Assembly: GCA_947632325.1 (NCBI GenBank)
Contig: CANROU010000002.1
Coordinates: forward strand, 43,840 to 107,839
Length of the DNA: 64,000 nt
Source of the DNA: an uncultured Bacilli bacterium
Lineage (GTDB): Bacteria > Bacillota_I > Bacilli_A > RF39 > UBA660
Reading direction: 5' to 3'
Shown: positions 2,691 through 23,635 of the stretch, piece after piece
Numbering within the stretch: the stretch's first letter is position 1
Layout of the letters: every line of letters starts with the position of its first letter
The notes under the pieces: model-generated
Database searches by the model: none
Told to the model about the DNA's origin: nothing
The model's input: the letters and a program-made list of their open reading frames with translations, nothing else
Program-made: the position numbers and the translations under genes

Positions 2691-3239
2691 ATGAAAGAAG
2701 CCATTGGTGGTACTTTGACGATATACCTCATTCTTATTTTCATGTTGATTCTTTCTGGTTATATGGCTTTTTCGGTAAATTATACTAAGGCCTTTCGTGT
2801 TAAAAATGAGGTTATCAATTTAATTGAACAGTATGAAGGTCATACACCTAATGCCCAGAGCAAAATTAAGGACTACTTGAGGAATATGAATTATTCGACT
2901 GCTGGTAATCCAGTAATAGCTTTTGAAAATTCAGTTAGAAAAGATAATAAATATCAGTATACTAACTGCCAAGATGGTTATTGTGTAAGGTGTTGGGATA
3001 CTAATAATAAATTGAATGCTGATAATGCTGATGGTATTGAGAATGGTATTTATTATACCGTATATACCTATGTTAATATTGATATACCTATTTTTAATAA
3101 GTTTTTCCCTGGCATGAAACTTTTTAGAGTTAGTGGGGAAACTAAAACCATATACGGTAATAAAAAATGTGAAGATTCTTCATCTTCACCGTTTGGTAAA
3201 ATTATTGATAGCTTGACGGAAAACGCCCTGCGTTATTAA
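2691..3239 (+). CDS. Membrane-anchored extracellular protein, TadE-like/pseudopilin-like N-terminus
   Basis: Single N-terminal TM (TLTIYLILIFMLILSGYMAF) followed by TKAFRVKNEV, resembling TadE N-termini. Cys-containing C-terminal domain. Confidence 0.3.
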   Translation: MKEAIGGTLTIYLILIFMLILSGYMAFSVNYTKAFRVKNEVINLIEQYEGHTPNAQSKIKDYLRNMNYSTAGNPVIAFENSVRKDNKYQYTNCQDGYCVRCWDTNNKLNADNADGIENGIYYTVYTYVNIDIPIFNKFFPGMKLFRVSGETKTIYGNKKCEDSSSSPFGKIIDSLTENALRY

Positions 3240-3271: not shown

Positions 3272-4258
3272 ATGAACGTAATTGTTGCTAATCAACAACG
3301 TGAAGTATTATCTGGTTTAGATATTGATATTATTAAAAATGTTACGGGAGAATATGATGCTGATGAATTAGTCAGTATGTTCCGTAATTTCTTTTTTGGT
3401 AGAATGATTTTGGATGTTACAGCTATCAAGGAGTACCAAAATATAGCTAATTTACAAAAAATAGCTACTAATTTAGATGCAGAAAAAATCATTTTATTAT
3501 TACCTAATATACCAGAGATGTCTTCATCTAGTTATTTATCTAAAATTATATCAATGGGATACTATAATTTTACAACTAATTTAGATGGTGTTAAATATTT
3601 ATTAGATCATCCAAATAGTTATAAGGATGTAGCACATATTCAACAATTAAATGAAATGCCTGATACTCCTATGGATAGGGTATCTAGTTCCGTTGGCGAT
3701 AGTTATGTTCTTGGTATAAAAAATGTTACTGAGCAAGCTGGTAGTACAACTTTAATTTATATGTTAAAAAAAGAGTTGGAGCATACATTTTCTATGCAAG
3801 TTACAGCTATGGAAATAGGTAAGAATGACTTTGGATACTTTAATGAAAAAAATATGATTTCAGTAACTAAGGATAACTTTGCTGTTGAATTATTGAAACA
3901 TAAAGAATCTGATGTTATTTTAGTAGATTTAAATGATTCAAATATCGATGAGACTTGCCATAGTGTATTATACTTAGTAGAACCAACAACTATTAAACTT
4001 AATAAATTGTTAAGAAGAAGTAGAATGGCACTTGAAAAATTAAAAGGCAAAAAAATTGTTTTAAATAAAAGTTTATTAACTAATAGCGATGTTATGGATT
4101 TTGAATATGAGGCTCATGTAAAAGTGTTCTTCAATATGCCACCAGTTAATGAAAGAAACAGAAATAATGTTTTTCATGGCTTATTAGCTAAACTTGGCAT
4201 AATAGATAAAGGCTCAGGTGGTAAAGAAGAAAAAAGTGGTTTTTTTAAATTCTTTTAA
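3272..4258 (+). CDS. CpaE/TadZ-like protein: receiver-like N-domain plus ParA/MinD-fold domain with degenerate Walker A (alternative: VirC1-like ParA)
   Basis: VLGIKNVTEQAGSTTLIYML aligns to the deviant Walker A of MinD/ParA (V.G.KGGVGKTT) but lacks the lysines. VILVDLNDS corresponds to the Walker B-like strand. The first 110 aa resemble a CheY-like fold without the phospho-acceptor Asp. Confidence 0.4.
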   Translation: MNVIVANQQREVLSGLDIDIIKNVTGEYDADELVSMFRNFFFGRMILDVTAIKEYQNIANLQKIATNLDAEKIILLLPNIPEMSSSSYLSKIISMGYYNFTTNLDGVKYLLDHPNSYKDVAHIQQLNEMPDTPMDRVSSSVGDSYVLGIKNVTEQAGSTTLIYMLKKELEHTFSMQVTAMEIGKNDFGYFNEKNMISVTKDNFAVELLKHKESDVILVDLNDSNIDETCHSVLYLVEPTTIKLNKLLRRSRMALEKLKGKKIVLNKSLLTNSDVMDFEYEAHVKVFFNMPPVNERNRNNVFHGLLAKLGIIDKGSGGKEEKSGFFKFF

Positions 4259-4344
4259 TTTTTAATTGACAGTAAACAAATGAAAATTAATTGACTTATA
4301 TAAGAAAAACAAATAAAATAAAGTTAAGAAAGTGAGGTTTTTGT

Positions 4345-4704
4345 ATGAATTTGTTTCAGATATTAGTAGATGTTGGTGATGCCTGTGGTGGATTAACACC
4401 CGTTGTTAAATTTATTAAACATGGTGTATTTCCAATTATTCAAATAGGTATTCCTATTATTTTGATTGTTATGGGAAGTATTGATTTAGGTAAAGCTGTT
4501 TTATCAAGTGATGAAAAAGCTATTAAAGCTGCTCAAGGAATGCTTGTAAAACGTTGTATTGCCGCAGTAGCCGTATTCTTTGTGGTTACTATTGTAAGCT
4601 TATTGATGGGACTATTTAGTAATCTTAATTCTACTGACAAAGGTGAAGGAACAGATACTACATCTTGGGGTGAATGTTGGGACGCTGCATTTATTAATAA
4701 ATAA
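4345..4704 (+). CDS. VirB2/TrbC-like T4SS pilin candidate (two-helix membrane hairpin)
   Basis: 119 aa with TM - DLGKAVLSSDEKAIKAAQGMLVKRCIAA - TM topology. Shares a ~65-aa module with the C-terminus of the next gene. Followed by a strong intrinsic terminator. Confidence 0.4.
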   Translation: MNLFQILVDVGDACGGLTPVVKFIKHGVFPIIQIGIPIILIVMGSIDLGKAVLSSDEKAIKAAQGMLVKRCIAAVAVFFVVTIVSLLMGLFSNLNSTDKGEGTDTTSWGECWDAAFINK

Positions 4705-4719
4705 TAATATATAAAAGTT

Positions 4720-4742
4720 AAGCTCTTTAAGAGCTTTTTTTC
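4720..4742 (+). terminator. Rho-independent terminator after the short pilin-like gene
   Basis: AAGCTCT-tta-AGAGCTT stem followed by TTTTTT. Confidence 0.6.
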
Positions 4743-4824
4743 TTGTTTTCATAAAATTATTTTGCTATTTGTCTTATTATTTGATATACTTGTTATAGTG
4801 TAGATATCTGTTAGGAGAGATAGA

Positions 4825-6318
4825 ATGAAGTTATTAAAAAAAGTAAGTTATTGTTTAGTATTGGCTTTTATCGCTTTTTGTGGATTTACTTTAAATGTAA
4901 AAGCGGATGATAAGTTTGCAATGTGTACTTATAAATATAATGATACATCTGTTGGTAATAGAACTTTAACTCTTGTATATAGAAATAAGGAATTTTATTT
5001 ATTAGCTGATACGGGAAATCCTAATCACTATTGGAGAGATACGGCGTCATCCTTTAAGCTGTTTGATAAATTAAAAATTGATATGTCTTATAAAAAAATA
5101 GATGAAATTTGTCCAAATAACATTCAAGTAAATGGATATGTTGATGATTACTCACAATTGTGTTGGGGAGAAATATGTAAAGATAGCATTAGATATGATT
5201 TATCTTTAAGTGGTAGTGATTATTTGACCTTTTTATCCAATCTTAGTTGTACATATAAACGGTCTCAAGAGGATATGCCTGATCTTACTTTGGGGTATGT
5301 TGACGGTTATGTGCAATACGAAATAATTTCATTCTTAGGTGGAAGTGATGGCGAAAGAAATACTAAACAACTTGGCATAGTTTATGCTGATGATGCTAAA
5401 AAGCTTTATGGATTTGGAGCAGAAAAAAATGGTGGAGCGTATCTAGATTATGAAGCGTTACAAGCATATAAAGAAGCTGGCTTAATAGGTGGTAATTGTC
5501 CCAACTATTTAATTTATAATCCTGACTTAGGCTTTTATGTTTCCAAGATTCCAAGCATAGACAGTAAAAAAATAGAATTATTGCGTGCTACTGCCGTTGT
5601 CAATCCTGCTACTTATTATTATTATGAAATTGGGGCTTCTGCAAAAAATTGTCCCACTGATTATAGTGATACTATTAATGAGCATATAGGGATTTTAACA
5701 AACACAGATAGCTTAATAAAAGAACGCATACAAGATGGTAAATTAGATTCACAGGCTTATGATGAATATTATGGACAAAGAACGAAGGCAAACAACGATT
5801 TAAACAGTTTTGGAAATTGTGTTGACAAGGATTTAAAAGAAACCTTAGAAAAATTAATACAGTCAGTTGGTAGCAACTTAGATCAAGCGGTAGCTGCTTC
5901 TACTATTATGACCTCAAGTGAAAAAACTGTAGCAAATAATAATAGTAATGCCATTAAAACATCTGCTAAACAGATGGCAACTTTGGATGATCCAATAGAT
6001 ATATCAGGGAATATTTCTTGTGATTCGCTATTAGGAAGTCCAAATGATTCAGGCAGTTTATACAGTTTAATTAATACTTTGTTTAGATATATTCAAATTA
6101 TTGCTCCTATTTTATTGATCGTGTTTGGTGGTGTTGATTTTGGTAAAGCTGTTTTATCATCTGATCAAGAGGAATTAAAAAAGGCTCAAGCTAGGTTTAT
6201 TAAAAGATGTATTGCTGCCTTAGCATTATTCTTTTTACCGTATATGGTTAAGTGGTTAATGGAACAAATAATGACTCATACAGGTATTATAGATTGGGAC
6301 GCTTGTATGCCTAAATAG
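4825..6318 (+). CDS. Secreted Cys-rich protein (about 430 aa ectodomain) fused to a C-terminal VirB2-like membrane-hairpin module; candidate pilus-tip adhesin
   Basis: Signal peptide (MKLLKKVSYCLVLAFIAFCGF). C-terminus IAPILLIVFGGVDFGKAVLSSDQEELKKAQARFIKRCIAALALFF...W..C is paralogous to the 4345 gene product. Confidence 0.4.
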   Translation: MKLLKKVSYCLVLAFIAFCGFTLNVKADDKFAMCTYKYNDTSVGNRTLTLVYRNKEFYLLADTGNPNHYWRDTASSFKLFDKLKIDMSYKKIDEICPNNIQVNGYVDDYSQLCWGEICKDSIRYDLSLSGSDYLTFLSNLSCTYKRSQEDMPDLTLGYVDGYVQYEIISFLGGSDGERNTKQLGIVYADDAKKLYGFGAEKNGGAYLDYEALQAYKEAGLIGGNCPNYLIYNPDLGFYVSKIPSIDSKKIELLRATAVVNPATYYYYEIGASAKNCPTDYSDTINEHIGILTNTDSLIKERIQDGKLDSQAYDEYYGQRTKANNDLNSFGNCVDKDLKETLEKLIQSVGSNLDQAVAASTIMTSSEKTVANNNSNAIKTSAKQMATLDDPIDISGNISCDSLLGSPNDSGSLYSLINTLFRYIQIIAPILLIVFGGVDFGKAVLSSDQEELKKAQARFIKRCIAALALFFLPYMVKWLMEQIMTHTGIIDWDACMPK

Positions 6319-6333
6319 AAAGGAGTTGATATC

Positions 6334-8103
6334 ATGATACTAGCAGCAAAAGCGGGAATGTTTGGTAACATATGGCGTGGTATATGTATATTTTTAGATA
6401 GAATAGTATATCAACTTTTGGTTTGGGTATATGAGATTTTCTTTACGGTTGCTGAACAAAATAATTTGTTTAATCAAGATACTTATCTATATATATTTCG
6501 TCGTATATTTATGATTTTAGGCATTTTTATGTTATTCAAATTATCTATTTCATTATTACAGATTATAGTATCACCAGATGAAAATAACAAGCAACAAAGC
6601 AAAATGGGACAAGTCATTGGTAGAGTTATTGTTGTGGTGGTTTTGATTTTTGCTTTAGTTCCGCAACCATCATTAAATAATTCAGATCCAAATTCGTTGG
6701 AGGCAAAAATAAAAACCGATGGATTGCTATTTGGTACACTTAATTCACTCCAAGAACGTGTATTGAGAGGCAATTTCTTGGGTAAGTTGATTTTAGGATC
6801 TTCAGCGGCAGAGACTTCTTCAAAACAAGGTACAGCAATACAAGAGGGTGGAAATCAGATTGCTTCAACTATTTTTAGAGCATTCTTTTATCCTAATAAG
6901 TCTTGTGGACAAATTGCAATCTATGATGATTGGAGTAATAATGCAACAGACGTACAAGATCTAATGGATCTTTACCAAGAAACGTGTAGTAATAAAGAAT
7001 ATGCTTTCGAATATATGGGATTAGTTTCTACATTAGCTGGCGGTTTTGCGGTTTTTATGATTTTCTCATTCACACTAGATGTAGCTATTCGACTTTTTAA
7101 GTTATTGTTTTTAAGATTAATCGCCCCTATTCCAGTTATAAGTTATATAGACCCTAAATCAGCAAAAGATGGCGCTTTCGCTAACTGGGTTAAAGTTACT
7201 ACTAGCACTTATTTAGAATTATTTATTCATCTAATTATTATTTTTTTAATGTTATTTTTAGTACGAGAAGTAATTCAAAGTGAATTCTTTAAAAACATTT
7301 TTACTTTTGATAATAATTTTTCAATTATAACAGTAATTGCTGGGGTATTTATCATTTTAGGTATATTCTTTTTTGCTAGACAAGCTCCTAAATTTATAAG
7401 AGATATCTTTGGTATTAAAGGTGGAAGTGGTAGCATTGGACTTGCCGGTATGTTAGGAGGTGCTGCTGCCTTAGTAGGTGGTGCTGGATTAGCTGGAGCA
7501 GGAGCAGCTATGCTTCAGAATAGTATGGCTTCTAGTGATGCTGCTGCTCAAGGCAAACAGTTTAGCGGTGGTTGGCGTGCTGGTAGTGATTTGGCCGCTC
7601 AAATTAGAACAGGCGATAAAAACGCTAGAGGTGGTCTTATCAATAGAGCACAACAAGCAGCACAAAGAAGGGCTGGAGCTAGACAAGCTGATCAACTTGG
7701 GTTAACTAGAGATAATGTTCAATTCGCTAAAGATAAAATGTATGAAACTCAAAATCAAGAAACTGAAGCAACAGATGCTTATAATAGATTTATTAATAGC
7801 GACGTTTATAAAAGCAATCCTGCAGGAGAGGAAGCACATCGTCAAACTTTATATAATAATATGGTGTCTGCTCAGGCTGCAGCTGCTAAAGCTAAAAGTA
7901 ATTATGAAAAAGCCAGTAAGGGAAGAGAACAACTTGCTGGGCCAGAAACTTTACAAGATAGATATGGTCCTAGATATTTTGCTAGGCGCCGTTTAAATCG
8001 AGAAGAGCGTAGACGTAATGCTAGACGTCCAGTTGGATCTCATTATACTGAAGATGCTGATCATGCACGTGGAAGTGATAGATTTGATCAACCACCAATT
8101 TAA
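6334..8103 (+). CDS. VirB6/TrbL-like polytopic channel protein with Gly/Ala-rich and Gln/Arg/Ala-rich hydrophilic C-terminal tail
   Basis: Six or more TM helices in the first 360 aa, then GGSGSIGLAGMLGGAAALVGGAGLAGAGAA and a ~200 aa low-complexity tail. Architecture and position match ConG/TcpH/VirB6 family members. Confidence 0.45.
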   Translation: MILAAKAGMFGNIWRGICIFLDRIVYQLLVWVYEIFFTVAEQNNLFNQDTYLYIFRRIFMILGIFMLFKLSISLLQIIVSPDENNKQQSKMGQVIGRVIVVVVLIFALVPQPSLNNSDPNSLEAKIKTDGLLFGTLNSLQERVLRGNFLGKLILGSSAAETSSKQGTAIQEGGNQIASTIFRAFFYPNKSCGQIAIYDDWSNNATDVQDLMDLYQETCSNKEYAFEYMGLVSTLAGGFAVFMIFSFTLDVAIRLFKLLFLRLIAPIPVISYIDPKSAKDGAFANWVKVTTSTYLELFIHLIIIFLMLFLVREVIQSEFFKNIFTFDNNFSIITVIAGVFIILGIFFFARQAPKFIRDIFGIKGGSGSIGLAGMLGGAAALVGGAGLAGAGAAMLQNSMASSDAAAQGKQFSGGWRAGSDLAAQIRTGDKNARGGLINRAQQAAQRRAGARQADQLGLTRDNVQFAKDKMYETQNQETEATDAYNRFINSDVYKSNPAGEEAHRQTLYNNMVSAQAAAAKAKSNYEKASKGREQLAGPETLQDRYGPRYFARRRLNREERRRNARRPVGSHYTEDADHARGSDRFDQPPI

Positions 8104-8123: not shown

Positions 8124-8444
8124 ATGAATGATATGTATTTAATACCTGCTAATACAAATAGAGGTAAATTAATTTTAGGAATATTTACATCTTTTGATTT
8201 GATATTATTTGGAGTGGGAGTATTTATTACTATAATATTAATGATGTTTGTTCCAATGACTAGTACAATAGTGACGGTTCTAATATTAGCACCGGCTTTG
8301 GTTTCAGCATTATTGGTAGCTCCTGTTCCTTATTATCATAATATTTTAACGGTTGTAAGAGAATTGATTGAGTTTTTTAACAATAGACAAAAATATGTTT
8401 GGAAAGGTTGGTGTAGTGGTTATGGCGACGATAGCAACAAGTAA
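8124..8444 (+). CDS. VirB3-like small membrane protein (PrgI/ConD-like)
   Basis: 106 aa, two hydrophobic helices, immediately upstream of and overlapping the VirB4 N-terminal gene, as in VirB3-VirB4 pairs. Confidence 0.35.
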   Translation: MNDMYLIPANTNRGKLILGIFTSFDLILFGVGVFITIILMMFVPMTSTIVTVLILAPALVSALLVAPVPYYHNILTVVRELIEFFNNRQKYVWKGWCSGYGDDSNK

Positions 8445-8970
8445 ATATACTGAAGATTGGTTACCCGTTGTTGGTATTCAAAATGGTTTAATTGAATTAC
8501 AAAATCATATGAAGGTAACAGGTGTTAAGATAGTACCACGTAATATTTTTATCTTGGATGCTGATGCTCAAAATAATGTTTTAATAAGTTTAAAAAATTT
8601 CTACAATATGATAGATTTTGAGTTTTGGTTAGTGGTAGCGGATAGGCCAGTGGATATTTCGGTTTATTTATCACAACTACAATTGCTATATAATAATACA
8701 CAATCACCAGTTATTCGTAAATTGATTAATCAAGATATTCAAAAGGGTAATACATTTATGAGTAATAATATTGTAGATACAGAATATTACATCTTATTTA
8801 AAGATAAAAATATTGATGCTATACAGAAGAAAATACGTTTATTAATTAATGGTTTAGCAGGCTGTGGATTAAGTGCTTCGCAAACCAGTAATGATGATTT
8901 ACGAGTAATTTTAGATAATTTCTTAAATGGGGGACAAACAACTGAATTTGGGACGGTGTTGCCAATATGA
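8422..8970 (+). CDS. VirB4/TrbE N-terminal domain encoded as a separate gene
   Basis: EDWLPVVGIQNGLIELQNHMKVTGVKIVPRNIF...EFWLVVADRPVDIS matches the conserved N-terminal region of VirB4/CagE/TrbE. Ends TGA inside an ATGA overlap with the ATPase gene. The longer ORF-track start at 8368 is less likely than ATG 8422. Confidence 0.55.
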   Translation: MATIATSKYTEDWLPVVGIQNGLIELQNHMKVTGVKIVPRNIFILDADAQNNVLISLKNFYNMIDFEFWLVVADRPVDISVYLSQLQLLYNNTQSPVIRKLINQDIQKGNTFMSNNIVDTEYYILFKDKNIDAIQKKIRLLINGLAGCGLSASQTSNDDLRVILDNFLNGGQTTEFGTVLPI

Positions 8971-10760
8971 CAAATAATAGATTAAAAGCACAATTAGCTC
9001 CTAAGGGTTTACAATTTAATGCTAGTGATTTCTTTATTAGTGATAAATACGCTACTATTTTATCAGTTGTATCATATCCTAAATATATTGCTCCAGGATA
9101 TTTATCATCACTTACTAATATGCCAGGTATTAAGGTAGTAATTAAGCATATTCCGGTTCCTTTTCAAACCATTTCTAAGATGTTAAATAAACAAATTGCT
9201 GATTTACGTGTTAGGTATCAAGAAGAAAGAGATCAAACAATGCAGGAGAGAATTAGACAAGATGCTGATTCATTGGAACAATTTACTTCTATGTTAGCAT
9301 CATCACAAGCCCGTATTTTTGATTTTCAAATGCACATTATGATAACGGCTGATAGTAAAGAAGAGTTGGAGCTTAAGAAAACTAATGTTAAGAATTATTT
9401 AGATGCTATGGAATTAAAAGCTATTTCTCTTCGTTTTGAACAGGAAAAGGTTTTGAAATCCATTCTACCAATTTTTCCTAAGCAAGAAATCGAAGATAGG
9501 ATAGGAACCCCAATTCCATCTATAACTGTTGCGGCTATGTATCCGTTTATATTTGATAGTATCAAAGATCCAGGATTATCTACTTTATTAGGTGTTGATT
9601 TTTCTGGTGGTGTTATTTTATTTAATCAATTCTTATATAAAATAAAAAAAGAAAATAATCGTAATAATGCTAATTTAATTATTTTAGGTACTTCTGGATC
9701 AGGTAAATCAACAGCTGCTAAGTTGATGTTAAGAAGTCATATTCGTAATGGTTGTCAAATTGTAGCCATCGATCCTGAAAATGAACTAGAAGATATGACA
9801 CGCCTTTATGGTGGAGATGTTATCGATCTTGGTAAAGGTGGCGAATTTGGGATGATTAATCCCTTAGAAGTGGTAATTGATGCTGATGAAGAAGAATTGA
9901 AACAGGGTCTTGGTTATACTGTTTTAACTAGAACGTTACAATTTTTAAAGGCCTTTATGAAGTATTATGATCCATCTATTGAAGAAGATGTCCTAACTTT
10001 ATTTAGTGAGGTTGTACAAGACACTTATAAACGTTTTCAAATTGATTTTAATACAGATTTTACCAAATTAACTTCTAAAGATTATCCAACTTTTTCGGAT
10101 GTTTATGCTACTATCAATGGTTGGTTAACTTCTATGACGGAACAAACACATGAAAGAGATATTATGGAACGTTTAGAATTAAAAATTCGACCTCTTACTA
10201 AAGAATTGCGTTTCTTCTTTGATAGTCATACAACGATTACTCCTCAAAGTGATTTTATCGTTTTTAATATCAGGGAACTTATGAATGCAGAGGTTAATAT
10301 CCGTAATGCTTTGTTTTTCAATATTTTGAAATATGCTTGGGGTTTATGTTTGGATACAGATGTGGATACAGTTTTAATGGTTGATGAAGCTCATGTTTTA
10401 TTGGGACAAAATAATGTCTTGGGGGCAGATTTTTTAGCGCAAGTACAGCGTCGTGCTCGTAAATATAACACAGGAACGATTATTATTACACAACAACCAA
10501 GTGATTTCTGTGATCCATCGGTTATTACTCAAGGAAAAGCTATTTTTGATAATGCTTCTTATTACTTAGTAATGGGTTTAAGAAAACAAGCTGTAGAGGA
10601 TTTATCTTTACTTATAGATTTAAATGATAATGAAAAGGATAGCATTAAACGTTATTCACAAGGTGAGGCTCTATTTGTTTGTGGTAATCGTCGAATGCGT
10701 ATTAATGTTATTGTAACCCCAGAAGAGTTAGATTCGTTTGGTAGTGGGGGAGGATTTTAA
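8967..10760 (+). CDS. VirB4-type T4SS ATPase (C-terminal catalytic part)
   Basis: Walker A LGTSGSGKST, Walker B-like VLMVDEAHVLL, and arginine-rich AQVQRRARKYNTG motif. Size and order are typical of TcpF/ConE/PrgJ. Confidence 0.8.
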   Translation: MTNNRLKAQLAPKGLQFNASDFFISDKYATILSVVSYPKYIAPGYLSSLTNMPGIKVVIKHIPVPFQTISKMLNKQIADLRVRYQEERDQTMQERIRQDADSLEQFTSMLASSQARIFDFQMHIMITADSKEELELKKTNVKNYLDAMELKAISLRFEQEKVLKSILPIFPKQEIEDRIGTPIPSITVAAMYPFIFDSIKDPGLSTLLGVDFSGGVILFNQFLYKIKKENNRNNANLIILGTSGSGKSTAAKLMLRSHIRNGCQIVAIDPENELEDMTRLYGGDVIDLGKGGEFGMINPLEVVIDADEEELKQGLGYTVLTRTLQFLKAFMKYYDPSIEEDVLTLFSEVVQDTYKRFQIDFNTDFTKLTSKDYPTFSDVYATINGWLTSMTEQTHERDIMERLELKIRPLTKELRFFFDSHTTITPQSDFIVFNIRELMNAEVNIRNALFFNILKYAWGLCLDTDVDTVLMVDEAHVLLGQNNVLGADFLAQVQRRARKYNTGTIIITQQPSDFCDPSVITQGKAIFDNASYYLVMGLRKQAVEDLSLLIDLNDNEKDSIKRYSQGEALFVCGNRRMRINVIVTPEELDSFGSGGGF

Positions 10761-10842: not shown

Positions 10843-13119
10843 ATGGCATATAAGGCTAATAGAGGCAATAACCAAAATAATTTGCAACAATCTAATCAAG
10901 ATGATACTTCTAATAGCGAAGCTGCTAAAACAGCTAAACAGCAAGAAAATCGTGATAATACTAAAAACGTTGCTAAAAATGTAGGTTCTATGGCTTTACA
11001 AGGTATGGGAGTACCTGCTCCTATAGCAAAAATGGCTACTAATAAAATAGCTAAGAATCCTATAGTGAATAAGGCCTTAAATAAAGCTAGTGACAAAATA
11101 AATAAAAATCCACTTGCTAATAAGGCTATTAATCAAATGGCTAACAGCAAATTAGATGCTGCGGGAAAATCTTCTAACAACCCAGGTTCATCTAGTAAAG
11201 ACTCACAAAATGGTACGAAAAATGCTGAAGGTCGTAATGGACAAAGTACATCTAATAATTCTAGGTCTAATAGTAATCAGCGAAATTCATCACCAAATAG
11301 ATCTAATGATAAAAAAGATGGAGAAGGTAGTTCTAAGGTATCAGGATCGGTTGAGGGTAGTAGTCTTATACCTAAAGCTCTTAAAATAAAATTGATATTA
11401 ATTGGTGCGGCAGCCGCTGCTGGATTATTCCTAATTATTGTTGTTTTTGCTGTTATTTCTAGTTTCAATCCCTTTTTTGGTGTTGATAAATCATCTGGTA
11501 AATCAACTGATTTAGGGGAATTTGATATTGATCCTGATTCTGATGAAGGTAAGTTTTATAATAAAGTTAATGAAGTAGCTGCCGAATACAATACAAACGG
11601 GACACCATTTGATCCTAGACTTATTGCTTCTGTTTTTACGACAATTAATAATTATGATGATAATTATAGTTATGAGGAAGCTACCAATGATATTGAGACA
11701 TTAGCTAATTTTATGGTGGAAAACACTATAACTTGTCAATATGGGGAAGAAACGCAGCATGTTGTTGATAAACCTTGTCCAGAGGGCTATAATGAGGTAA
11801 GTAGAACAAGAGATATTAATGAAAAAAAATTTAAGGATAAATTAAAAACTGAATTTTTAAAAAATAAAGTTAAAACATTACCAGAGGATCAAATGGAATC
11901 ATTAGTTACGGATATATATCAATTAATTGAAGATTATAAGGAATTAATTGGGGAGAATCAAACAGTTTTAGCTGCTGGTGGTATGTGTACTTATAATGTT
12001 GATAACAAAACTATTTCTAATATCAAAGTTCGTCTTCTACAATGTGATGATGATAATCGGGGAGAACCAATTGAAGGTGAAGAATTGATTGATTTTGAAA
12101 AATATATCATGGGCGTTACTTATGCTGAAAATGGAAATGGACCACTAGAGGCTATGAAAACGGAAGCTATCGCGGCACGTAGTTTCGCTCTTACTAGAGC
12201 TAAAGATATGGGGGGAAATTTTAATATTAAATTACAAGAAGAAAATGGTGAAATGGTTTTATCTATTCGTAGTTGTACAGAAGATCAAGTATATTGTGAT
12301 CCAGATAAAGGTTGTTGGTCCAATGATAAAAATGCTAATGGTACTGTTCACTCGGGACAACAAGCAGGTAAACCTTATTCTAAGCCTCCTATACCAATGG
12401 ATTCACCTATTCGTAAGGCCATAGAAGAAACGAAAGGAACGGTTTTAGTAGATGATAGTGGGAACATTGTTATGACAAGTTATACTGATACTAATCATCA
12501 AAACTGGAACAGTTTAGCACAAGCAGGAAATGATTGTTTCCAAATATTAAAAAAGGATTATCCAAATGCCAGTAGATTACAGGCTTCTTGTTCTTTAGGA
12601 GCTGCCACTGGTGAATTTTCAAGTTGGAAACAATATGGTGCGCCATGGAGTTCTACTAAATTAGGCCCTGGGGGAGATACTATTGCGGAGTCGGGCTGTT
12701 TGGCAACTTCTATTGCTATTCAAATTGCCAGATCAGGTACTAGATTATTCATAGATCCTTTTAATCCAGGTGTTTTAGTAACGACAATGGCTGCTCATGG
12801 TGGCTTTGTTGGCAGCAGTATGCAATGGAATAATGCTTGGCAATTTGCTGCACCTGATTGGACTTTGGCTTGTGATTCTCGTAGTAGTAATAGTTGTTCT
12901 CTAAGTGGTACTAAGGCCAATAAAACTAATCAAATTGCTAGTTACTTAAATCAAGGCTATTATCCAGTGGTAGCTGTTAAAAATGAAGGGCATTGGGTAG
13001 CAATCGATCACGTTGAAGGTGATAATGTTTACATGTTTGATCCAGGTAGTAGTTCTACTTTATTATGGGATCAATATAGCTACACTGGTTCTAATAGAAT
13101 TTTGCTATTTAGAGGGTGA
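10843..13119 (+). CDS. T4SS-associated cell-wall hydrolase: Asn/Lys-rich repeat N-terminus, TM anchor, SpoIID/LytB-like domain, CHAP/NlpC-P60-like Cys-His peptidase domain
   Basis: Repeats AKNPIVNKALNKASDKINKNPLANKAINQ. TM at IKLILIGAAAAAGLFLIIVVF. LEAMKTEAIAARSFALTRA resembles the SpoIID signature (EALKAQAVAARTYAL). C-terminus has ESGCLATSIAIQIAR ... EGHWVAIDHVEG, a Cys/His dyad. Confidence 0.55.
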   Translation: MAYKANRGNNQNNLQQSNQDDTSNSEAAKTAKQQENRDNTKNVAKNVGSMALQGMGVPAPIAKMATNKIAKNPIVNKALNKASDKINKNPLANKAINQMANSKLDAAGKSSNNPGSSSKDSQNGTKNAEGRNGQSTSNNSRSNSNQRNSSPNRSNDKKDGEGSSKVSGSVEGSSLIPKALKIKLILIGAAAAAGLFLIIVVFAVISSFNPFFGVDKSSGKSTDLGEFDIDPDSDEGKFYNKVNEVAAEYNTNGTPFDPRLIASVFTTINNYDDNYSYEEATNDIETLANFMVENTITCQYGEETQHVVDKPCPEGYNEVSRTRDINEKKFKDKLKTEFLKNKVKTLPEDQMESLVTDIYQLIEDYKELIGENQTVLAAGGMCTYNVDNKTISNIKVRLLQCDDDNRGEPIEGEELIDFEKYIMGVTYAENGNGPLEAMKTEAIAARSFALTRAKDMGGNFNIKLQEENGEMVLSIRSCTEDQVYCDPDKGCWSNDKNANGTVHSGQQAGKPYSKPPIPMDSPIRKAIEETKGTVLVDDSGNIVMTSYTDTNHQNWNSLAQAGNDCFQILKKDYPNASRLQASCSLGAATGEFSSWKQYGAPWSSTKLGPGGDTIAESGCLATSIAIQIARSGTRLFIDPFNPGVLVTTMAAHGGFVGSSMQWNNAWQFAAPDWTLACDSRSSNSCSLSGTKANKTNQIASYLNQGYYPVVAVKNEGHWVAIDHVEGDNVYMFDPGSSSTLLWDQYSYTGSNRILLFRG

Positions 13120-13928
13120 AAAAAATGAAGAAATCTTATAAAATATTAATTGCTATTATTTTGATTTATGCTGTTATTATGATTATATTTGTAGGGATTC
13201 CTGCTATTAGAAAAAATAATAATGAAAAAAAAGGCACTTATCTTTTAGTAGGTAATGTTTCAAGATGGGAATATGTTAATAATACTTGGCAAAGTATTAC
13301 AGACATTAATAGTGTTCTTAGTAATAATTTATTTAAATGTTATGATGATGGTAATTATTTAGGTGAATTTGAGGTGCAGTATTATAATGATATATGGTAT
13401 TTGTTTGATAAAAACAATGATTCAAGAAAATTATCTAGTAGTTTTCTAGCCACCTCTAGTGCTAAAGAAATAGAGGTTATAGATCTTAATAATATCATGA
13501 CGAACCTTGATCAAGTAGATTTATCTTATGTCAATAAAGTATTAGAAGATAATTCTCTTCCTAGTGCTACTTTAACTACCTTAGGACTTCAAAATAAAAT
13601 AACTTTTGATTTTGATGGTGACAAACAAGAGGAGATGTTGTATACTATTTCTAATTGGTACGACGGACAGTCGCAAGATAAGATTTATTCTTTTGTCTTT
13701 TATGTTGATAATAATAATATTCAAATATTAAGAGAAGATATTGTTGATAAGATTGATATGTATGATAATCATCAATATCCTATTGTTGCTATTTTAGATA
13801 CTAATAATGATCATAAATATGAATTTATTATTAGCGAAGATAAATTAATGCAAGGTATGGAACAATGTCATATCATGTATCAATTAAAAAAAGGCCAATT
13901 TAATATAATTAAATCATGCGATGAGTAG
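13116..13928 (+). CDS. Membrane-anchored extracytoplasmic protein, possible VirB8/TcpC-like T4SS component
   Basis: Single N-terminal TM then ~235 aa ectodomain. Overlaps the upstream gene by 4 nt. Assignment is positional only. Confidence 0.25.
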   Translation: MKKMKKSYKILIAIILIYAVIMIIFVGIPAIRKNNNEKKGTYLLVGNVSRWEYVNNTWQSITDINSVLSNNLFKCYDDGNYLGEFEVQYYNDIWYLFDKNNDSRKLSSSFLATSSAKEIEVIDLNNIMTNLDQVDLSYVNKVLEDNSLPSATLTTLGLQNKITFDFDGDKQEEMLYTISNWYDGQSQDKIYSFVFYVDNNNIQILREDIVDKIDMYDNHQYPIVAILDTNNDHKYEFIISEDKLMQGMEQCHIMYQLKKGQFNIIKSCDE

Positions 13929-13941
13929 GGGAGGAATTTAA

Positions 13942-16149
13942 ATGAAATTGAAATTTCGGGCAGATCCACAAGATATATTAATCTTTGTTCTCTTTGCTAT
14001 ATTTCTTTTATATGTAGTAGCTATTGGGGTGGTTAATCTATCTACTTTAGCTGTTGAGGGACATTTTTATGGTTTAAATCCTTTAGTAGCATTTACACCT
14101 ACTTATATAAAAGCTACCATTGTATTTTATATTTTATTTCTCGCTGGTATTTTTGTTAGTGTTAGTTCTTATTTCTTTGAACGAGAAAAAGGGGTAGGAA
14201 TAACTACTGATAAAAAAGATAAAGGGTATAGTCGGTGGGCTAAAGATAAAGAAATTAAGGAAAGTAAAGATGTTGAGAAGGTTCTTATTTCAGATGAGAA
14301 TTCAACAGTCGCTGGTACTCCTTTGATTTATAAAGGGAATGAAATCTGGGTTGATAATGGTGAAAATCATACTTTAGTTATCGGTGCCACTGGTTCTGGT
14401 AAGACGCAATCAATTGTTTTACCGACAGTTAAAATCTTAGCTAAACATAAAGAATCGATGATTATTACTGATCCTAAAGGGGAAATTTATGAGCAAACAT
14501 CACAGATGTTAAGAGAAAGGGGATATCAGATTTTACTTTTGAATTTCCGTGATCCACAAGAAGGTAATGCTTGGAATCCCTTATCTTTGCCTTATGAAAT
14601 GTATAAAAATGGTCATCAGGACAAGGCTATTGAGTTATTAGATGACTTGGCTCTTAATATTTTGTATGAGGAAAACAGCGGTAATGCCGATCCCTTTTGG
14701 GAGAAAACATCAGCCGATTATTTCTCGGGTATAGCACTTGGTTTATTTGAGGATGCTAAACCAGAGGAAATTAATATTAATAGTATTAGTTTGATGACTA
14801 CAGTTGGTGAAGAAAAATTTGGAGGATCTACATATGTTAAAGAATATTTTAATAGTAAAGATCCAGCTAGTGCTGCAGCTATTAATGCTTCTAGTACTAT
14901 TATGGCTCCAAATGAAACCAAGGGTAGTATTTTGGCGGTCTTTAAACAAAAGATAAAATTATTTGCATCCCGTGAAAATTTATCCGAGATGTTATCGCAT
15001 ACAGATATAGATTTAGAGACAATTGGTGAAAAGCCAACAGCTTTATTTGTGGTTATTCAAGATGAAAAGACAACATATCATTCTTTAGTAACTATTTTAT
15101 TGAAGCAAGTTTATGAAACATTGATTGCTAATGCTCAAAAACATGGAGGAAAACTTCCTGTTCGTACGAATTTCTTATTGGATGAATTTGCCAACATGCC
15201 ACCATTAAAGAATGTTACAACGATGATTACTGCTGCTCGAAGCCGACAAATTCGTTTTACGATGATTATTCAAAATTTTGCTCAGTTAGATCAGGTTTAT
15301 GGTAAAGAAAATGCTGAAACCTTAAGAGGTAACTGTGGAAATTTAATTTATTTAATTACCACCGAATTAAAAGCTCTAGAAGAGATTAGTAAGATGTGCG
15401 GTGAAGTAAAATCGAAAAAAGATGATAAAACAGCTTCAACACCACTTGTTACGGTTAGTGATTTACAACGTATGAAAGAAAATGAAGTTATTATACTAAG
15501 ATTACGACAACAACCTTTTAAAACAAAATTTACTCCTGATTATAAGATAGACTGGGGTAAGAAATATCCTAAAGCTGAATTTCCTCATCGAGAGAAAATG
15601 CCTGTGGCAACTTTTGATATTCGTGAGTTTGTTAAAGAGATGAAACGTCAAAAATTGTTTAGTATGATGGAAGAAAACAACGGTCAAAATGGTGGTGGTG
15701 TGATGAATGCCACTGGTGGAATGCCACCTTTCAGTCCACCAAGTATGTTTAATATTAATCAAGAGCCAATGCCACCACTTAATCAAACTACAAATAATAC
15801 TAAAACATCTTCTGCTCCTGCAGATAAATTTGATGTGGATGATTTAGTAAGAAAAATCGACCAAAAGATAGCGGAATTAGAAGCCGAAGAAAAGAGAAAT
15901 AAACAACAAGCTGAGGCTTTTAATACTAAGATGCAACCTAGTGAGATTAATGCCGTAGAAGTTAAACCTAAAACAGAGGTAATATCTAACGAAAATCAGG
16001 TATTAAATGATAGAAAAACAGCTATAGAAGATACTACTTCCGTGGTTAAAGAAGAACCTAAGGCTATTATTCACACTGAAAACTTGCTATCTAATGATCC
16101 TGAAGAAGAAGATGATGATAATTTTTTTGATGACTTCTTTGATGATTAA
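13942..16149 (+). CDS. Type IV coupling protein (VirD4/TraG/TraD family) with acidic C-terminal tail
   Basis: Two N-terminal TMs. Walker A VIGATGSGKTQS, Walker B LFVVIQDE, and signature NFLLDEFANMPPL. C-terminal 250 aa has a Pro/Met/Asn-rich linker and ends EEEDDDNFFDDFFDD. Confidence 0.8.
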   Translation: MKLKFRADPQDILIFVLFAIFLLYVVAIGVVNLSTLAVEGHFYGLNPLVAFTPTYIKATIVFYILFLAGIFVSVSSYFFEREKGVGITTDKKDKGYSRWAKDKEIKESKDVEKVLISDENSTVAGTPLIYKGNEIWVDNGENHTLVIGATGSGKTQSIVLPTVKILAKHKESMIITDPKGEIYEQTSQMLRERGYQILLLNFRDPQEGNAWNPLSLPYEMYKNGHQDKAIELLDDLALNILYEENSGNADPFWEKTSADYFSGIALGLFEDAKPEEININSISLMTTVGEEKFGGSTYVKEYFNSKDPASAAAINASSTIMAPNETKGSILAVFKQKIKLFASRENLSEMLSHTDIDLETIGEKPTALFVVIQDEKTTYHSLVTILLKQVYETLIANAQKHGGKLPVRTNFLLDEFANMPPLKNVTTMITAARSRQIRFTMIIQNFAQLDQVYGKENAETLRGNCGNLIYLITTELKALEEISKMCGEVKSKKDDKTASTPLVTVSDLQRMKENEVIILRLRQQPFKTKFTPDYKIDWGKKYPKAEFPHREKMPVATFDIREFVKEMKRQKLFSMMEENNGQNGGGVMNATGGMPPFSPPSMFNINQEPMPPLNQTTNNTKTSSAPADKFDVDDLVRKIDQKIAELEAEEKRNKQQAEAFNTKMQPSEINAVEVKPKTEVISNENQVLNDRKTAIEDTTSVVKEEPKAIIHTENLLSNDPEEEDDDNFFDDFFDD

Positions 16150-20996: not shown

Positions 20997-21590
20997 TTGA
21001 AGGTAGGTGCGAGGATGCAGGAAGATAATAGAAAATCTATGATTAAAAAATTAGGCATAGCTATTGCTTCTGTCATTTTGCTTATTGTAGTTGTAGCGGG
21101 AGTCAGTTATGCTTGGTTTACATTAACTTTACAAGGGAATAAAACACAAATTATTAAAACAGGTAATTTCGGATTAACTATAACACCTAAATCAGGAAGT
21201 GCTGGAGTTAGTTTAACTAAGTCCAAACCGCTTAGTGATACTTATGTTAAAAATAATTTGGCTTCTTTAAAACCCTATGAATTTACCGTAACTAATAACA
21301 GTGATATTTCTGCAACATATAAGTTAACGTTAGTAGATAATGCTCTTAGTACTGCTAGTAAAAGAACAAGTGATAGTGATGTTAGAGTTTATCTTGTAAA
21401 AGGAACAACTGTAACAAATAAAGGTTTAAATGAATTTGCTAGTAGATTGATTGATACAGGGACATTAGCCGCTAAGGGGACTGTATCATATAAAGTATTA
21501 TTTTATATAAAAGAAAGCGCTACTAATGCAGTACAAGGAACAGAATTCAATGCCAGTTTTAAAGTAGATGGAACACAGGTACTTAATTAG
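20997..21590 (+). CDS. Secreted protein with SipW-cognate-type signal peptide (TasA/camelysin-like) (likely true start at ATG 21015)
   Basis: Charged N-terminus, hydrophobic core LGIAIASVILLIVVVAGVSYAWFT resembling the T-x-A-x-F-S/T motif of SipW substrates. Ser/Thr-rich beta-type repeats follow. Confidence 0.35.
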   Translation: MKVGARMQEDNRKSMIKKLGIAIASVILLIVVVAGVSYAWFTLTLQGNKTQIIKTGNFGLTITPKSGSAGVSLTKSKPLSDTYVKNNLASLKPYEFTVTNNSDISATYKLTLVDNALSTASKRTSDSDVRVYLVKGTTVTNKGLNEFASRLIDTGTLAAKGTVSYKVLFYIKESATNAVQGTEFNASFKVDGTQVLN

Positions 21591-21610
21591 GTACAGTTAT
21601 GAGGTAACAA

Positions 21611-21916
21611 ATGATAAAAATAACAGTTACAAAAGATGAAGATAAATATAATCATATTATCGTTACGGGACATGCAGGATATGATAAATATGGTAAAGAT
21701 ATTGTTTGTAGTGCTGTAAGTAGTATTGTAACTACTTCTGTAAACGCTAGTTTATTACTTTATCCTAATAGTTTAACTTGTAATAGTAAAACGGGTCATG
21801 TGGAAATTTCTAATATTAAAGATAAGAAAGAAGTGCAGCTATTACTTGATAACATGCTTAATTTATTGACAGAATTAAAGGATGAGTATCCAAAATATAT
21901 AACTATTATTGATTAA
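21611..21916 (+). CDS. Prp-like cysteine protease (DUF464; ribosomal-processing protease family)
   Basis: GHAGYDKYGKDIVCSAVSSIVTT matches the His...Cys dyad region of Prp/YsxB. Not flanked by rplU/rpmA here. Confidence 0.5.
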   Translation: MIKITVTKDEDKYNHIIVTGHAGYDKYGKDIVCSAVSSIVTTSVNASLLLYPNSLTCNSKTGHVEISNIKDKKEVQLLLDNMLNLLTELKDEYPKYITIID

Positions 21917-21975
21917 ATAGATTGCGTTTTATTAATTGATATGATATACTGAATTATAATGTAGGAGGCTAAAAT

Positions 21976-22512
21976 ATGAAAAAGAAAAATGAAAAAGGAT
22001 TTACTTTAATTGAGTTATTGGCGGTTATTATCATTTTAGGAGTATTATTATTGATTGCTATTCCCGCAATGACAGGTATTATTGAAGGAGCTAAGAAAGA
22101 CAGCTGGGTTTCAACAGCTAAAAACTATATTTCACAAGTACGTTATAGTGCTCTACAAGGTGATTATGCGCTTCCTGGAAGAAGTGAATGTACAATTGTG
22201 AATGTTACGAAAATTAATTTGGAACAAGGGGATCCAACTAAAAGTGTTTATGGTCAAAAATGGAAAACTGCTTATGTGGCTATTATAAATACCCCAGGTA
22301 CTGATGGACAAGATAAATATACGTATTATTTTGGTGGATGTGATGCTGAAAATAATAGTATGGGCTGGACTGCTGAAAATAATATGACTAGAGCCGGTGT
22401 TTTAAGGAGAAATAGCAATTGCCCTGTTTCTGCTTCAGGAAATACTATTCAGGATGTAACTAATGGTGATAATAGCAGTACAACAACTTGTACTTGTGTT
22501 AATTGCCCCTAA
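21976..22512 (+). CDS. Type IV pilin / competence-type pilin paralog 1 (prepilin N-terminal cleavage-methylation motif)
   Basis: MKKKNEKG/FTLIELLAVIIILGVLLLIAIPA class III signal. ~150 aa globular domain with C-terminal Cys cluster. Confidence 0.75.
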   Translation: MKKKNEKGFTLIELLAVIIILGVLLLIAIPAMTGIIEGAKKDSWVSTAKNYISQVRYSALQGDYALPGRSECTIVNVTKINLEQGDPTKSVYGQKWKTAYVAIINTPGTDGQDKYTYYFGGCDAENNSMGWTAENNMTRAGVLRRNSNCPVSASGNTIQDVTNGDNSSTTTCTCVNCP

Positions 22513-22531
22513 TAGCTGAGGAGAAAAAGTT

Positions 22532-23056
22532 ATGAAAAAGAAAAATGATAAGGGCTTTACTTTGATTGAGTTATTGGCGGTTATTATCATTTTAGGAGTA
22601 TTATTATTAATTGCTATTCCCGCAATGACAGGTATTATTGAAGGTGCTAAGAAAGACAGCTGGGTATCAACAGCTAAAAACTATATTTCACAAGTACGTT
22701 ATAGTGCTCTACAAGGTGATTATACGCTCCCTGGAAAAGGTGGATGTACAATTGTGGATGTTAAGAGCATTAATTTGGAACAGGGTGATCCAACCAAAAG
22801 TGTTTATGGCCAAAACTGGGAACCTGCATATGTGGCAATTGTAAATCTCTCGGGTGCTGATGGACAAGATAAATATACATATTATTTTGGTGGATGTGAT
22901 ACTGAATTTAATAGTATGGACTGGACTGCTGAAAATAATATAACCCGAAAAGACGTTTTAAGGAGAAGAGGTTATTGTAATGTTTCTAAGGGTGATACTA
23001 TTGAGGCTATAACTAATGGTGCTAGTGGCAGTCAAAGTAAGTGTAGCGACCCTTAG
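22532..23056 (+). CDS. Type IV pilin paralog 2
   Basis: Same N-terminus (KG/FTLIELLAVIIILGVLLLIAIPA). >85 percent nucleotide identity to paralog 1 over the first ~330 bp. Confidence 0.75.
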   Translation: MKKKNDKGFTLIELLAVIIILGVLLLIAIPAMTGIIEGAKKDSWVSTAKNYISQVRYSALQGDYTLPGKGGCTIVDVKSINLEQGDPTKSVYGQNWEPAYVAIVNLSGADGQDKYTYYFGGCDTEFNSMDWTAENNITRKDVLRRRGYCNVSKGDTIEAITNGASGSQSKCSDP

Positions 23057-23092
23057 CCCGTTACTAGACCATATTAATCAAAGGAGAAATGT

Positions 23093-23635
23093 ATGAAGAA
23101 ATTAAATGAAAAGGGCTTTACTTTGATTGAGTTATTGGCGGTTATTATCATTTTAGGAGTATTATTATTAATTGCTATTCCCGCAATGACCGGTATTATT
23201 GAGGGAGCTAAGAAAGATAGCTGGATTTCAACAGCTAAAAACTATATTTCACAAGTACGTTATATGGCTTTACAAGGAGATATTTCTTTACCTGGGAAAA
23301 ATCAATGGGTTCCTGTTTTAATTAAGGATAGGCCTAATGGTACGTCCAGAATTAGTTTGGAACAAGGCAATGCTAATAATAGCGTTTATAATTCTCCTTG
23401 GCAAGAATATAGAACCTGTGTAGTGATTGCTAACGTGCCTGAAAACAATGGTGAAGATAAATATATTTATTATTTCTATGGTGTGGATAATGAAAATAAT
23501 TGTCAAGGTTTAACTCAAGAGTCTGAGTTAGATAGGAACGATGTTCAACGAAGGAACAATGCCAATTGCACACTAACTTGTAATGCACTTACTGTACCTA
23601 ATGCTACTTATATAGGAGGGTATGCTAATAGTTAA
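23093..23635 (+). CDS. Type IV pilin paralog 3 (divergent globular domain)
   Basis: Same N-terminal 65 aa. C-terminal domain unrelated at sequence level apart from Cys positions. Confidence 0.75.
   Translation: MKKLNEKGFTLIELLAVIIILGVLLLIAIPAMTGIIEGAKKDSWISTAKNYISQVRYMALQGDISLPGKNQWVPVLIKDRPNGTSRISLEQGNANNSVYNSPWQEYRTCVVIANVPENNGEDKYIYYFYGVDNENNCQGLTQESELDRNDVQRRNNANCTLTCNALTVPNATYIGGYANS

Follow-up and report, generated by a model that had tools for sequence, protein, structure and literature searches.

Two adjacent genes of an uncultured Bacilli bacterium almost certainly encode hairpin proteins of the PF18895 (T4SS_pilin) family that are associated with a type IV secretion system (T4SS). 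They lie in a window of 64,000 nt (the whole stretch of DNA analysed here, G+C ~29%) from assembly GCA_947632325.1, contig CANROU010000002.1, positions 43,840–107,839; coordinates given below for the window are positions within it, and the features described between 3272 and 16149 are on the forward strand. The first gene (4345–4704) encodes a 119-aa pilin-like protein with no signal peptide and a predicted helical hairpin, the candidate major subunit. The second (4825–6318) begins 120 nt downstream on the same strand and encodes a 497-aa paralog with a signal peptide-like start, a Cys-containing variable ectodomain and a C-terminal pilin module. We propose that the two genes are a small array of VirB2-like PF18895 pilins serving the adjacent chromosomal T4SS.

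A preliminary description, made from the letters of the DNA, had claimed a C-terminal module of 65 aa common to the two neighbouring proteins. The similarity was confirmed by pairwise BLASTP: residues 28–88 of the small protein aligned without gaps to residues 419–479 of the large one, with 34/61 identities (56%; E=2e-20 in this single comparison, far beyond chance). The claimed size was too short, however. Across 33 aligned relatives, both small and large, C14, P37, G44, D47, A51, R70, F78 and C111 (numbering of the 119-aa protein) were invariant, and because these columns run from Cys14 to Cys111 the shared unit is of ~95 aa; its limits are a Cys ~15–25 aa ahead of the first hydrophobic helix and another Cys past the second, in the tail. 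It corresponds to 4384–4677 in the small gene and to 6019–6306 (Cys399–Cys494) in the large one. When cysteines were located by hidden Markov model coordinates in 170 distinct module proteins from related loci, both bracketing cysteines were present in all of them (170/170). The “W..C” reported near both C-termini was found as W108/C111 in the small protein and W491/C494 in the large; small proteins end W-x-x-C-W.

The layout of two membrane helices joined by a loop, also proposed earlier, was supported by hydropathy and by AlphaFold2 prediction. Hydrophobic stretches of 19–22 aa were found at ~28–46 and ~71–92 of the 119-aa protein, and the model placed two 37-residue helices at 18–54 and 57–94, followed by a short C-terminal helix, with a predicted local distance difference test score (pLDDT) of 94–96 in the core. 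The same hairpin was predicted at the C-terminal end of the large protein (412–445 and 448–486). Two helices with a 20-residue charged loop are unlike the one helix and basic tail of sorting signals. The possibility that the module is a lipid-anchor or sortase-like signal was rejected, LPXTG being found in 0/170 and a lipobox in 1/170 of the module proteins. The description of the large protein as secreted and Cys-rich also agreed with its sequence, which has 13 Cys and a signal-peptide-like hydrophobic stretch at residues 3–28.

The module was then compared with known families. The isolated C-terminus of the large protein (107 aa, nt 5995–6315) matched PF18895 over profile positions 3–71 of 71 at 27.9 bits (E=2.5e-6), above the gathering cut-off of 26.6 bits; the full-length 497-aa protein scored 24.5 bits, just under it. 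Modules of other large paralogs matched this profile end to end in 9 of 10 cases, three of them above the cut-off, and 41 of 46 small orthologues also matched it (best E=2e-6). The 119-aa protein of the window itself gave no match at E<=1, but is 56% identical to a PF18895 domain scoring above the cut-off, that of its large neighbour. Position-consistent matches to two NCBIfam models of Mycoplasma integrative and conjugative elements (ICEs) were also obtained. NF045849 (Mbov_0395 family pilin-like conjugal transfer protein; curated cut-off 40 bits) matched 24/46 small orthologues below its cut-off (best E=0.0083) and the large-paralog modules at ~14 bits, and the hairpin part (~52–121) of MMCAP2_0566_fam (NF045848) was matched weakly.

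The earlier reading of the module as a T4SS pilin thus stands as far as the PF18895 domain goes, but without detectable similarity to canonical VirB2/TrbC. PF04956 (TrbC/VirB2) had no match at E<=1 among the 46 small members, and hhalign of the family alignment against 24 Agrobacterium-type VirB2 sequences gave a probability of 0.17%, both alignments being shallow and pilin families mutually very divergent. On those grounds a distant homology to VirB2/TrbC would still be compatible with the null profile comparison. PDB sequences searched with a profile of the small family gave no match, and fold searches with the hairpin were uninformative, as a helical hairpin cannot be discriminated in this way. 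VirB3 was rejected as an identity for the small protein, a separate 106-aa gene occupying the position before VirB4. Because Pfam already holds PF18895 and NCBI names the Mycoplasma ICE relatives “pilin-like”, the pair is an extension of a known family rather than a wholly new class.

Relatives were detected in 259 species-representative genomes, and the best 80 were kept as loci and inspected. These 80 genomes were mostly labelled as uncultured gut “Bacilli”, “Tenericutes” or “Mycoplasmatota” metagenome-assembled genomes, with a few labels naming other taxa or none, and the set looks like the RF39-type lineage of the GTDB classification; Ca. Faecimonas, Ca. Scybalousia, Ca. Onthousia, Clostridium sp. 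CAG:710 and one closed 1.31-Mb chromosome were among them. The gene order was near-invariant: genes for a TadC-like, a Flp-like and a TadE-like protein, a ~327-aa protein and a small module protein were followed by one to three more module genes and then by those for a VirB6-like protein, a VirB3-position protein, VirB4-N, VirB4-C, a hydrolase, a ~260-aa protein and VirD4. VirB6-like and VirB4 genes were both present in 66 of the 68 loci with enough downstream sequence. Homologues of the module are therefore regularly linked to T4SS genes, the absence of such linkage having been named beforehand as what would speak against a pilin.

Among the 77 loci longer than 12 kb, 71 carried two to four module genes (two in 62, three in 7 and four in 2), and six carried one. 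The first module gene was always small (102–136 aa), with a signal-peptide-like N-terminus in 0/90. Non-first module genes encoded proteins of 112–567 aa (median 407), in which the module was always C-terminal and a signal-peptide-like start was found in 68/89.

Promoter- and terminator-like elements flank the small gene. A promoter-like site, TTGACT-17-TAAAAT (4291–4319), lies upstream of it and matches the consensus at 10/12 positions; a terminator-like hairpin with a T-run (4720–4746) follows directly 3′ of it; and a second promoter-like site, TTGCTA-17-TATACT with a TG (4762–4790), stands ahead of the large paralog. The promoter-like sites are weak on their own, their total in the region not exceeding shuffle expectation. 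The terminator-like element recurred 3′ of the small gene in 53/73 loci, as against 12/73 after the last large paralog and 52/600 random windows.

Conservation differed widely between components. Median pairwise identity across loci was highest for VirB4-C (81%) and VirB4-N (71%), lower for the small protein (55%), the large-paralog module (39%) and the VirB6-like protein (32%), and lowest for the ectodomain (22%). In the two near-identical contigs L008 and L009, the DNA was 99% identical as far as the beginning of the first large paralog, unalignable through the large paralogs and most of VirB6, and then 97% identical again. Within this hypervariable cassette (L008 10433–14388, L009 10433–14863) only a 236-nt patch aligned, at 77% identity. 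In many other pairs of loci VirB4-C was >95% identical and the large paralogs and VirB6 just 30–60%. Such variation points to co-evolution of VirB6 with the ectodomain-pilins, or to their joint exchange.

The small protein had 647 homologues at E<=1e-3 and the 497-aa protein only 11 in a word-indexed search. A profile of the module family found 9,945 clusters (50% identity, E<=1e-3) among 1.84 billion representatives, most of them with a signal peptide, a variable domain and the C-terminal module. In the AlphaFold2 model of the 497-aa protein, of low overall confidence (pLDDT 64.6), residues 31–130 were beta-rich, residues 280–385 formed a helical bundle and residues 412–486 the hairpin. No match at E<0.1 was obtained when this low-confidence model was compared with the PDB by Foldseek, and no likeness to the VirB5/TraC fold was seen. 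Likewise, Pfam at E<=0.1 gave nothing besides PF18895 and no similarity to VirB5/TraC. A “C-x-Y ... C-P” pattern occurs twice in the ectodomain (residues 34–36/96–97 and 142–144/234–235) and recurs in otherwise unalignable large paralogs, which points to a beta-rich domain, not described before, in two tandem copies; the helical bundle, predicted with confidence, follows the repeats. The last Cys stood exactly three residues from the C-terminus in 63/89 non-first paralogs (CGLK, CGIK, CGLQ and similar), and the large paralog of the window ends CMPK (nt 6304–6318). An even Cys count was found in 62/80 mature large paralogs; being confounded by Cys inside transmembrane helix 2, it was not used as evidence.

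From these data a working model can be drawn. In the membrane, both proteins would form a hairpin of two helices whose N- and C-flanks lie outside and whose conserved basic loop (D47..K50..K61..K69-R70) faces inward: the N-flank is placed outside because the large paralog has a signal peptide and a secreted ectodomain, and the small protein would share this topology by homology with the module of the large one. Between the two invariant cysteines, Cys14 and Cys111 in the small protein, an extracellular disulfide is probable; it would staple together the two ends of the hairpin. The small protein, which is conserved, apparently expressed separately and without signal peptide, would be the abundant structural subunit, extracted from the membrane by the VirB6-like platform and the VirB4 ATPase and stacked to build a fibre or conduit through the wall, which the hydrolase of the cluster would open. 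The 497-aa paralog would join through the same hairpin at low copy number and display its hypervariable, disulfide-rich ectodomain for target recognition.

A major subunit with minority subunits is suggested by the ectodomain-less copy being conserved, separately terminated and, like the large gene, preceded by a promoter-like site, by the ectodomain copies being variable and co-varying with VirB6, and by the same family forming “pilin arrays” beside T4SSs in Patescibacteria; a comparable logic is known from Bartonella Trw and from those arrays. Polymerisation and a distal tip location are suggested only indirectly, by the conservation contrast, the terminator-like hairpin after the small gene and the cassette-like variation. 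We put the chances of the full model, a fibre of pilin-like major subunits with variable adhesin-bearing minor subunits, at about even.

A second reading, possible though doubtful in our judgement, is that the hairpin is a membrane anchor or T4SS-docking module that does not polymerise. The large paralogs would then be surface receptors or adhesins beside the channel, and the small protein, a paralog without ectodomain, would serve as a fixed subunit of the channel or as an accessory to it, much like the small membrane proteins seen in other Gram-positive conjugation systems. Several observations fit such an anchor: the hydrophobic stretches of 19–22 aa suit ordinary transmembrane helices; MMCAP2_0566_fam of Mycoplasma fuses the hairpin to a VirB6-like domain, that is, to a fixed membrane protein; the co-variation of large paralogs and VirB6 suits a stable hairpin-VirB6 contact; and reviews report no pili for Gram-positive T4SSs (PMC12857230, PMC9905601). 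An anchor does not explain, however, why an ectodomain-less copy is universally retained, ranks among the better-conserved small components and has a terminator-like element of its own, nor why the same family makes multi-gene “pilin arrays” in Patescibacteria, and the predicted 37-aa helices reach well past a bilayer.

We think it unlikely that the proteins are parts of a translocation stalk or pore, in which a VirB6-derived hairpin would form a fixed small oligomer with no extended pilus. Such an origin has a precedent in the N-terminus of archaeal CedA (VirB6-like), which is reported to be homologous to the pilin CedA1, and pilins have been proposed to derive from membrane proteins (Beltran et al. 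2023, PMC9905601); a common origin has been put forward for CedA and CedA1 and for VirB6 and VirB2. The Mycoplasma NCBIfam model, too, holds hairpin and VirB6-like domain in one protein. Against the local VirB6-like proteins, however, the module scored at most ~10–12 bits with compositional bias, which is noise level, and hypervariable ectodomains of 100–450 aa in one to three copies per locus would be unexpected for a fixed pore subunit. That the pair belongs, as anchor or accessory, to the Tad/Flp-type pilus genes and not to the T4SS is very improbable: Tad-like genes (TadC-like, Flp-like, TadE-like) do stand immediately 5′ of the T4SS genes in 68 of the 73 loci with enough upstream sequence, but in L006, L007 and L049 the pair and the T4SS genes are kept with no Tad-like genes beside them, the models matched by the module are those of T4SS pilins and of the Mycoplasma ICE and not those of Tad families, and the cassette couples the large paralogs to VirB6, the Tad genes lying outside it and being 99% identical between L008 and L009.

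The T4SS genes follow the pair directly. A polytopic membrane protein of 589 aa (6334–8103) was VirB6/TrbL-like, matching NCBIfam MMCAP2_0566_fam (E=1.2e-8, profile 130–317) and pLS20_p028 (E=0.0027); its orthologues gave weak TrbL_4/DUF8208 matches. Since the module and the 589-aa protein match different parts of MMCAP2_0566_fam, the hairpin and the VirB6-like domain are apparently fused in Mycoplasma. Next comes a 106-aa membrane protein (8124–8444), conserved in the loci, which is assigned to the VirB3 position by place and size only and matched no family. The VirB4 ATPase (8368–10760) is encoded as an N-domain open reading frame (ORF; 8368–8970) and a C-domain ORF (8967–10760), matched by NCBIfam VirB4_plasma with E=2.2e-13 at profile 113–277 and E=8e-107 at profile 293–890, respectively. 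This Mycoplasma ICE model was the best for VirB4, the CD1110 family being next. The stop of one ORF overlaps the start of the other; the same split in related loci marks it as conserved, and the possibility of a frameshift or pseudogene of VirB4 was rejected for this reason.

Downstream of VirB4 are a 758-aa cell-wall hydrolase with a SpoIID domain (10843–13119; Pfam SpoIID E=4.4e-8), a conserved 270-aa protein with no family match (13116–13928), with a ~260-aa protein at the same position in the loci, and a VirD4-type coupling protein (13942–16149; NCBIfam conju_CD1115 310.8 bits, cut-off 250; Pfam T4SS-DNA_transf E=6e-60). The hydrolase position was filled differently elsewhere, by Glucosaminidase and CHAP domains in L004 (15648–17816) and by Peptidase_M23 in L006 (17462–19660). 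A scan of the cluster proteins detected none of VirB5, VirB7, VirB9, VirB10 and VirB11.

Core-chromosome genes fill the remainder of the window, among them those for rhodanese, RNase J, PBP2, RodA/FtsW, a GerA operon, CdsA, an M50 protease, a class-I tRNA synthetase, NusA, IF-2 and SMC. The 30 larger ORFs scanned downstream of the cluster (16.2–63.6 kb) were all housekeeping, cell-wall or sporulation genes. The PBP2, RodA, GerA and SpoIID-type genes of the window mark a wall-bearing, spore-forming host. No relaxase or integrase was found among the ORFs scanned, the scan being confined to the window and, from 21.6 kb on, to ORFs of at least ~240 aa. Neither megablast of the cluster nor tblastn of the small protein gave a match among 72,556 PLSDB plasmids. 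The genes had been taken for part of a conjugation system; being chromosomal, lineage-wide and without relaxase or integrase among the scanned ORFs, the cluster is unlike a plasmid or ICE system, and this part of the preliminary description was not borne out.

VirB2 and VirB5 are absent from Gram-positive T4SSs except those of Patescibacteria according to a review of December 2025 (PMC12857230), with which the earlier remark that pilins are rare in such systems agrees. A study of Patescibacteria stated that virB2 homologues are missing from the T4SS classes of Gram-positive bacteria and considered that the pilins were perhaps co-opted from another class (PMC12102498), and the absence of pilins has been used to argue that they were a late addition to the T4SS machinery (PMC9905601). 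The Patescibacteria arrays (PMC12102498, PMC12857230) resemble the present one in belonging to PF18895, in having several divergent copies beside virB4 and virB6 of a chromosomal MPF-FATA-type T4SS, and in their monoderm, reduced-genome hosts with no relaxase seen nearby. They differ in that the host here is a wall-bearing, spore-forming Bacilli, and in that the array here consists of one conserved signal-peptide-less copy and copies fused to large secreted ectodomains. A PF18895 array in wall-bearing, spore-forming Bacilli is a genuine extension of the known range. No description of the ectodomain fusions, the Cys bracket, the VirB6 cassette exchange or this lineage was found in the literature searched.

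The Mycoplasma ICE (NF045849, NF045848, NF045889 Mbov_0396, VirB4 Mbov_0397) provides the closest VirB4 model and implies the same order of pilin-like, VirB6-like and VirB4 genes. Unlike in the present system, the hairpin is seemingly fused to the VirB6-like domain, the host is wall-less and the system is on a mobile ICE; the hairpin matches, moreover, reached 14–21 bits, far below the curated cut-offs of 40–90.

Gram-negative VirB2/TrbC/TraA pilins (PF04956) are likewise small, with two hydrophobic helices and a basic loop, are encoded beside VirB6 and VirB4, and have both termini on the outer side, as would be the case here judging from the signal peptide and ectodomain of the large paralog. 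The ends of TrbC/VirB2 are joined by head-to-tail cyclisation; here, too, they appear joined, by the putative disulfide. The present proteins differ in having no detectable sequence or profile similarity to these pilins, no cleavable leader in the small copy and no outer membrane to cross.

In the Bartonella Trw and Anaplasma T4SSs the surface parts (VirB2, VirB5 or VirB6) are multiplied and hypervariable and the ATPases conserved, which resembles the present cluster, and this variation has been interpreted as fitting different target surfaces or as immune evasion (PMC12857230, PMC12102498). The hosts of those systems are diderm bacteria pathogenic to animal cells, and their VirB5 adhesins are proteins apart, whereas in the present cluster the variable domain forms one protein with the pilin module itself. 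The archaeal Ced/Ted pilins (CedA1, TedC; PMC9905601) are VirB2-like hairpin pilins in a monoderm-type envelope, and a kinship of pilin and VirB6-like protein has been proposed for them; export of CedA1 apparently involves no processing of a signal peptide (PMC9905601), which parallels the missing signal peptide of the small protein. The archaeal systems differ in that they import DNA, and the likeness is one of description, not of sequence comparison.

A PF18895 array in a Bacilli T4SS with a Mycoplasma ICE/CD1110-like VirB4 bears on both the late-addition and the borrowed-pilin arguments (PMC9905601, PMC12102498). It also brings to light a large, very diverse and unstudied family in which the membrane/assembly module is constant and the surface domains can be swapped, and which is plausibly a determinant of partner specificity in abundant uncultured gut bacteria. 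More tentatively, and with the odds in our view against it, this wall-bearing, spore-forming gut Bacilli lineage with reduced genomes may build a true VirB2-type fibre that is chromosomal, apparently relaxase-less and equipped with strain-specific pilin-adhesin fusions swapped together with VirB6. If so, the statement that Gram-positive T4SSs lack pilins would be overturned, a pilin would already have been present in the monoderm (MPF-FATA-type) machinery ancestral to the Patescibacteria system, and the machine would seem to be used for contact-dependent exchange with, or acquisition from, other cells and not for the transfer of a mobile element.

Upstream of the pair, the small gene is preceded by a gene (3272–4258) for a conserved 328-aa protein with no family match, which is present in nearly all loci (as a protein of ~327 aa), including L006, L007 and L049, and which by eye only resembles a degenerate ParA/TadZ-type protein. 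Further upstream are the TadC-like (121–903), Flp-like (2424–2651) and TadE-like (2691–3239) genes, the window beginning inside the Tad set. Their assignment to Tad/Flp comes by orthology, from loci in which genes for an RcpC-like protein and a T2SSE ATPase are present as well; the full set, with these two and a second TadB/C-like gene, was seen in L004, L008 and L009. The Flp-like proteins of the set are of 52–75 aa. A Tad pilus fixed beside a T4SS is unusual in a Gram-positive-type genome.

Between the TadC-like and Flp-like genes, a 464-aa polytopic protein (893–2287) weakly matched PMT_2 (GT-C glycosyltransferase; E=5e-4, below the cut-off) and might glycosylate a pilin; Ser, Thr and Asp are abundant in the exposed tail of the small protein. 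Similar genes were found in L008, L009 (on the opposite strand) and L022. In L006 and L007, which are without Tad-like genes, a thioredoxin/PedC-like gene (8410–8850, reverse strand) adjoins the cluster and could be relevant to the disulfides of the Cys-bracketed proteins. Finally, a run of five small ORFs (197, 101, 178, 174 and 180 aa) was found 3′ of RNase J (20997–23635); the first matched Peptidase_M73/camelysin at E=0.0036, below the cut-off, and the run may be a TasA/camelysin-like set.

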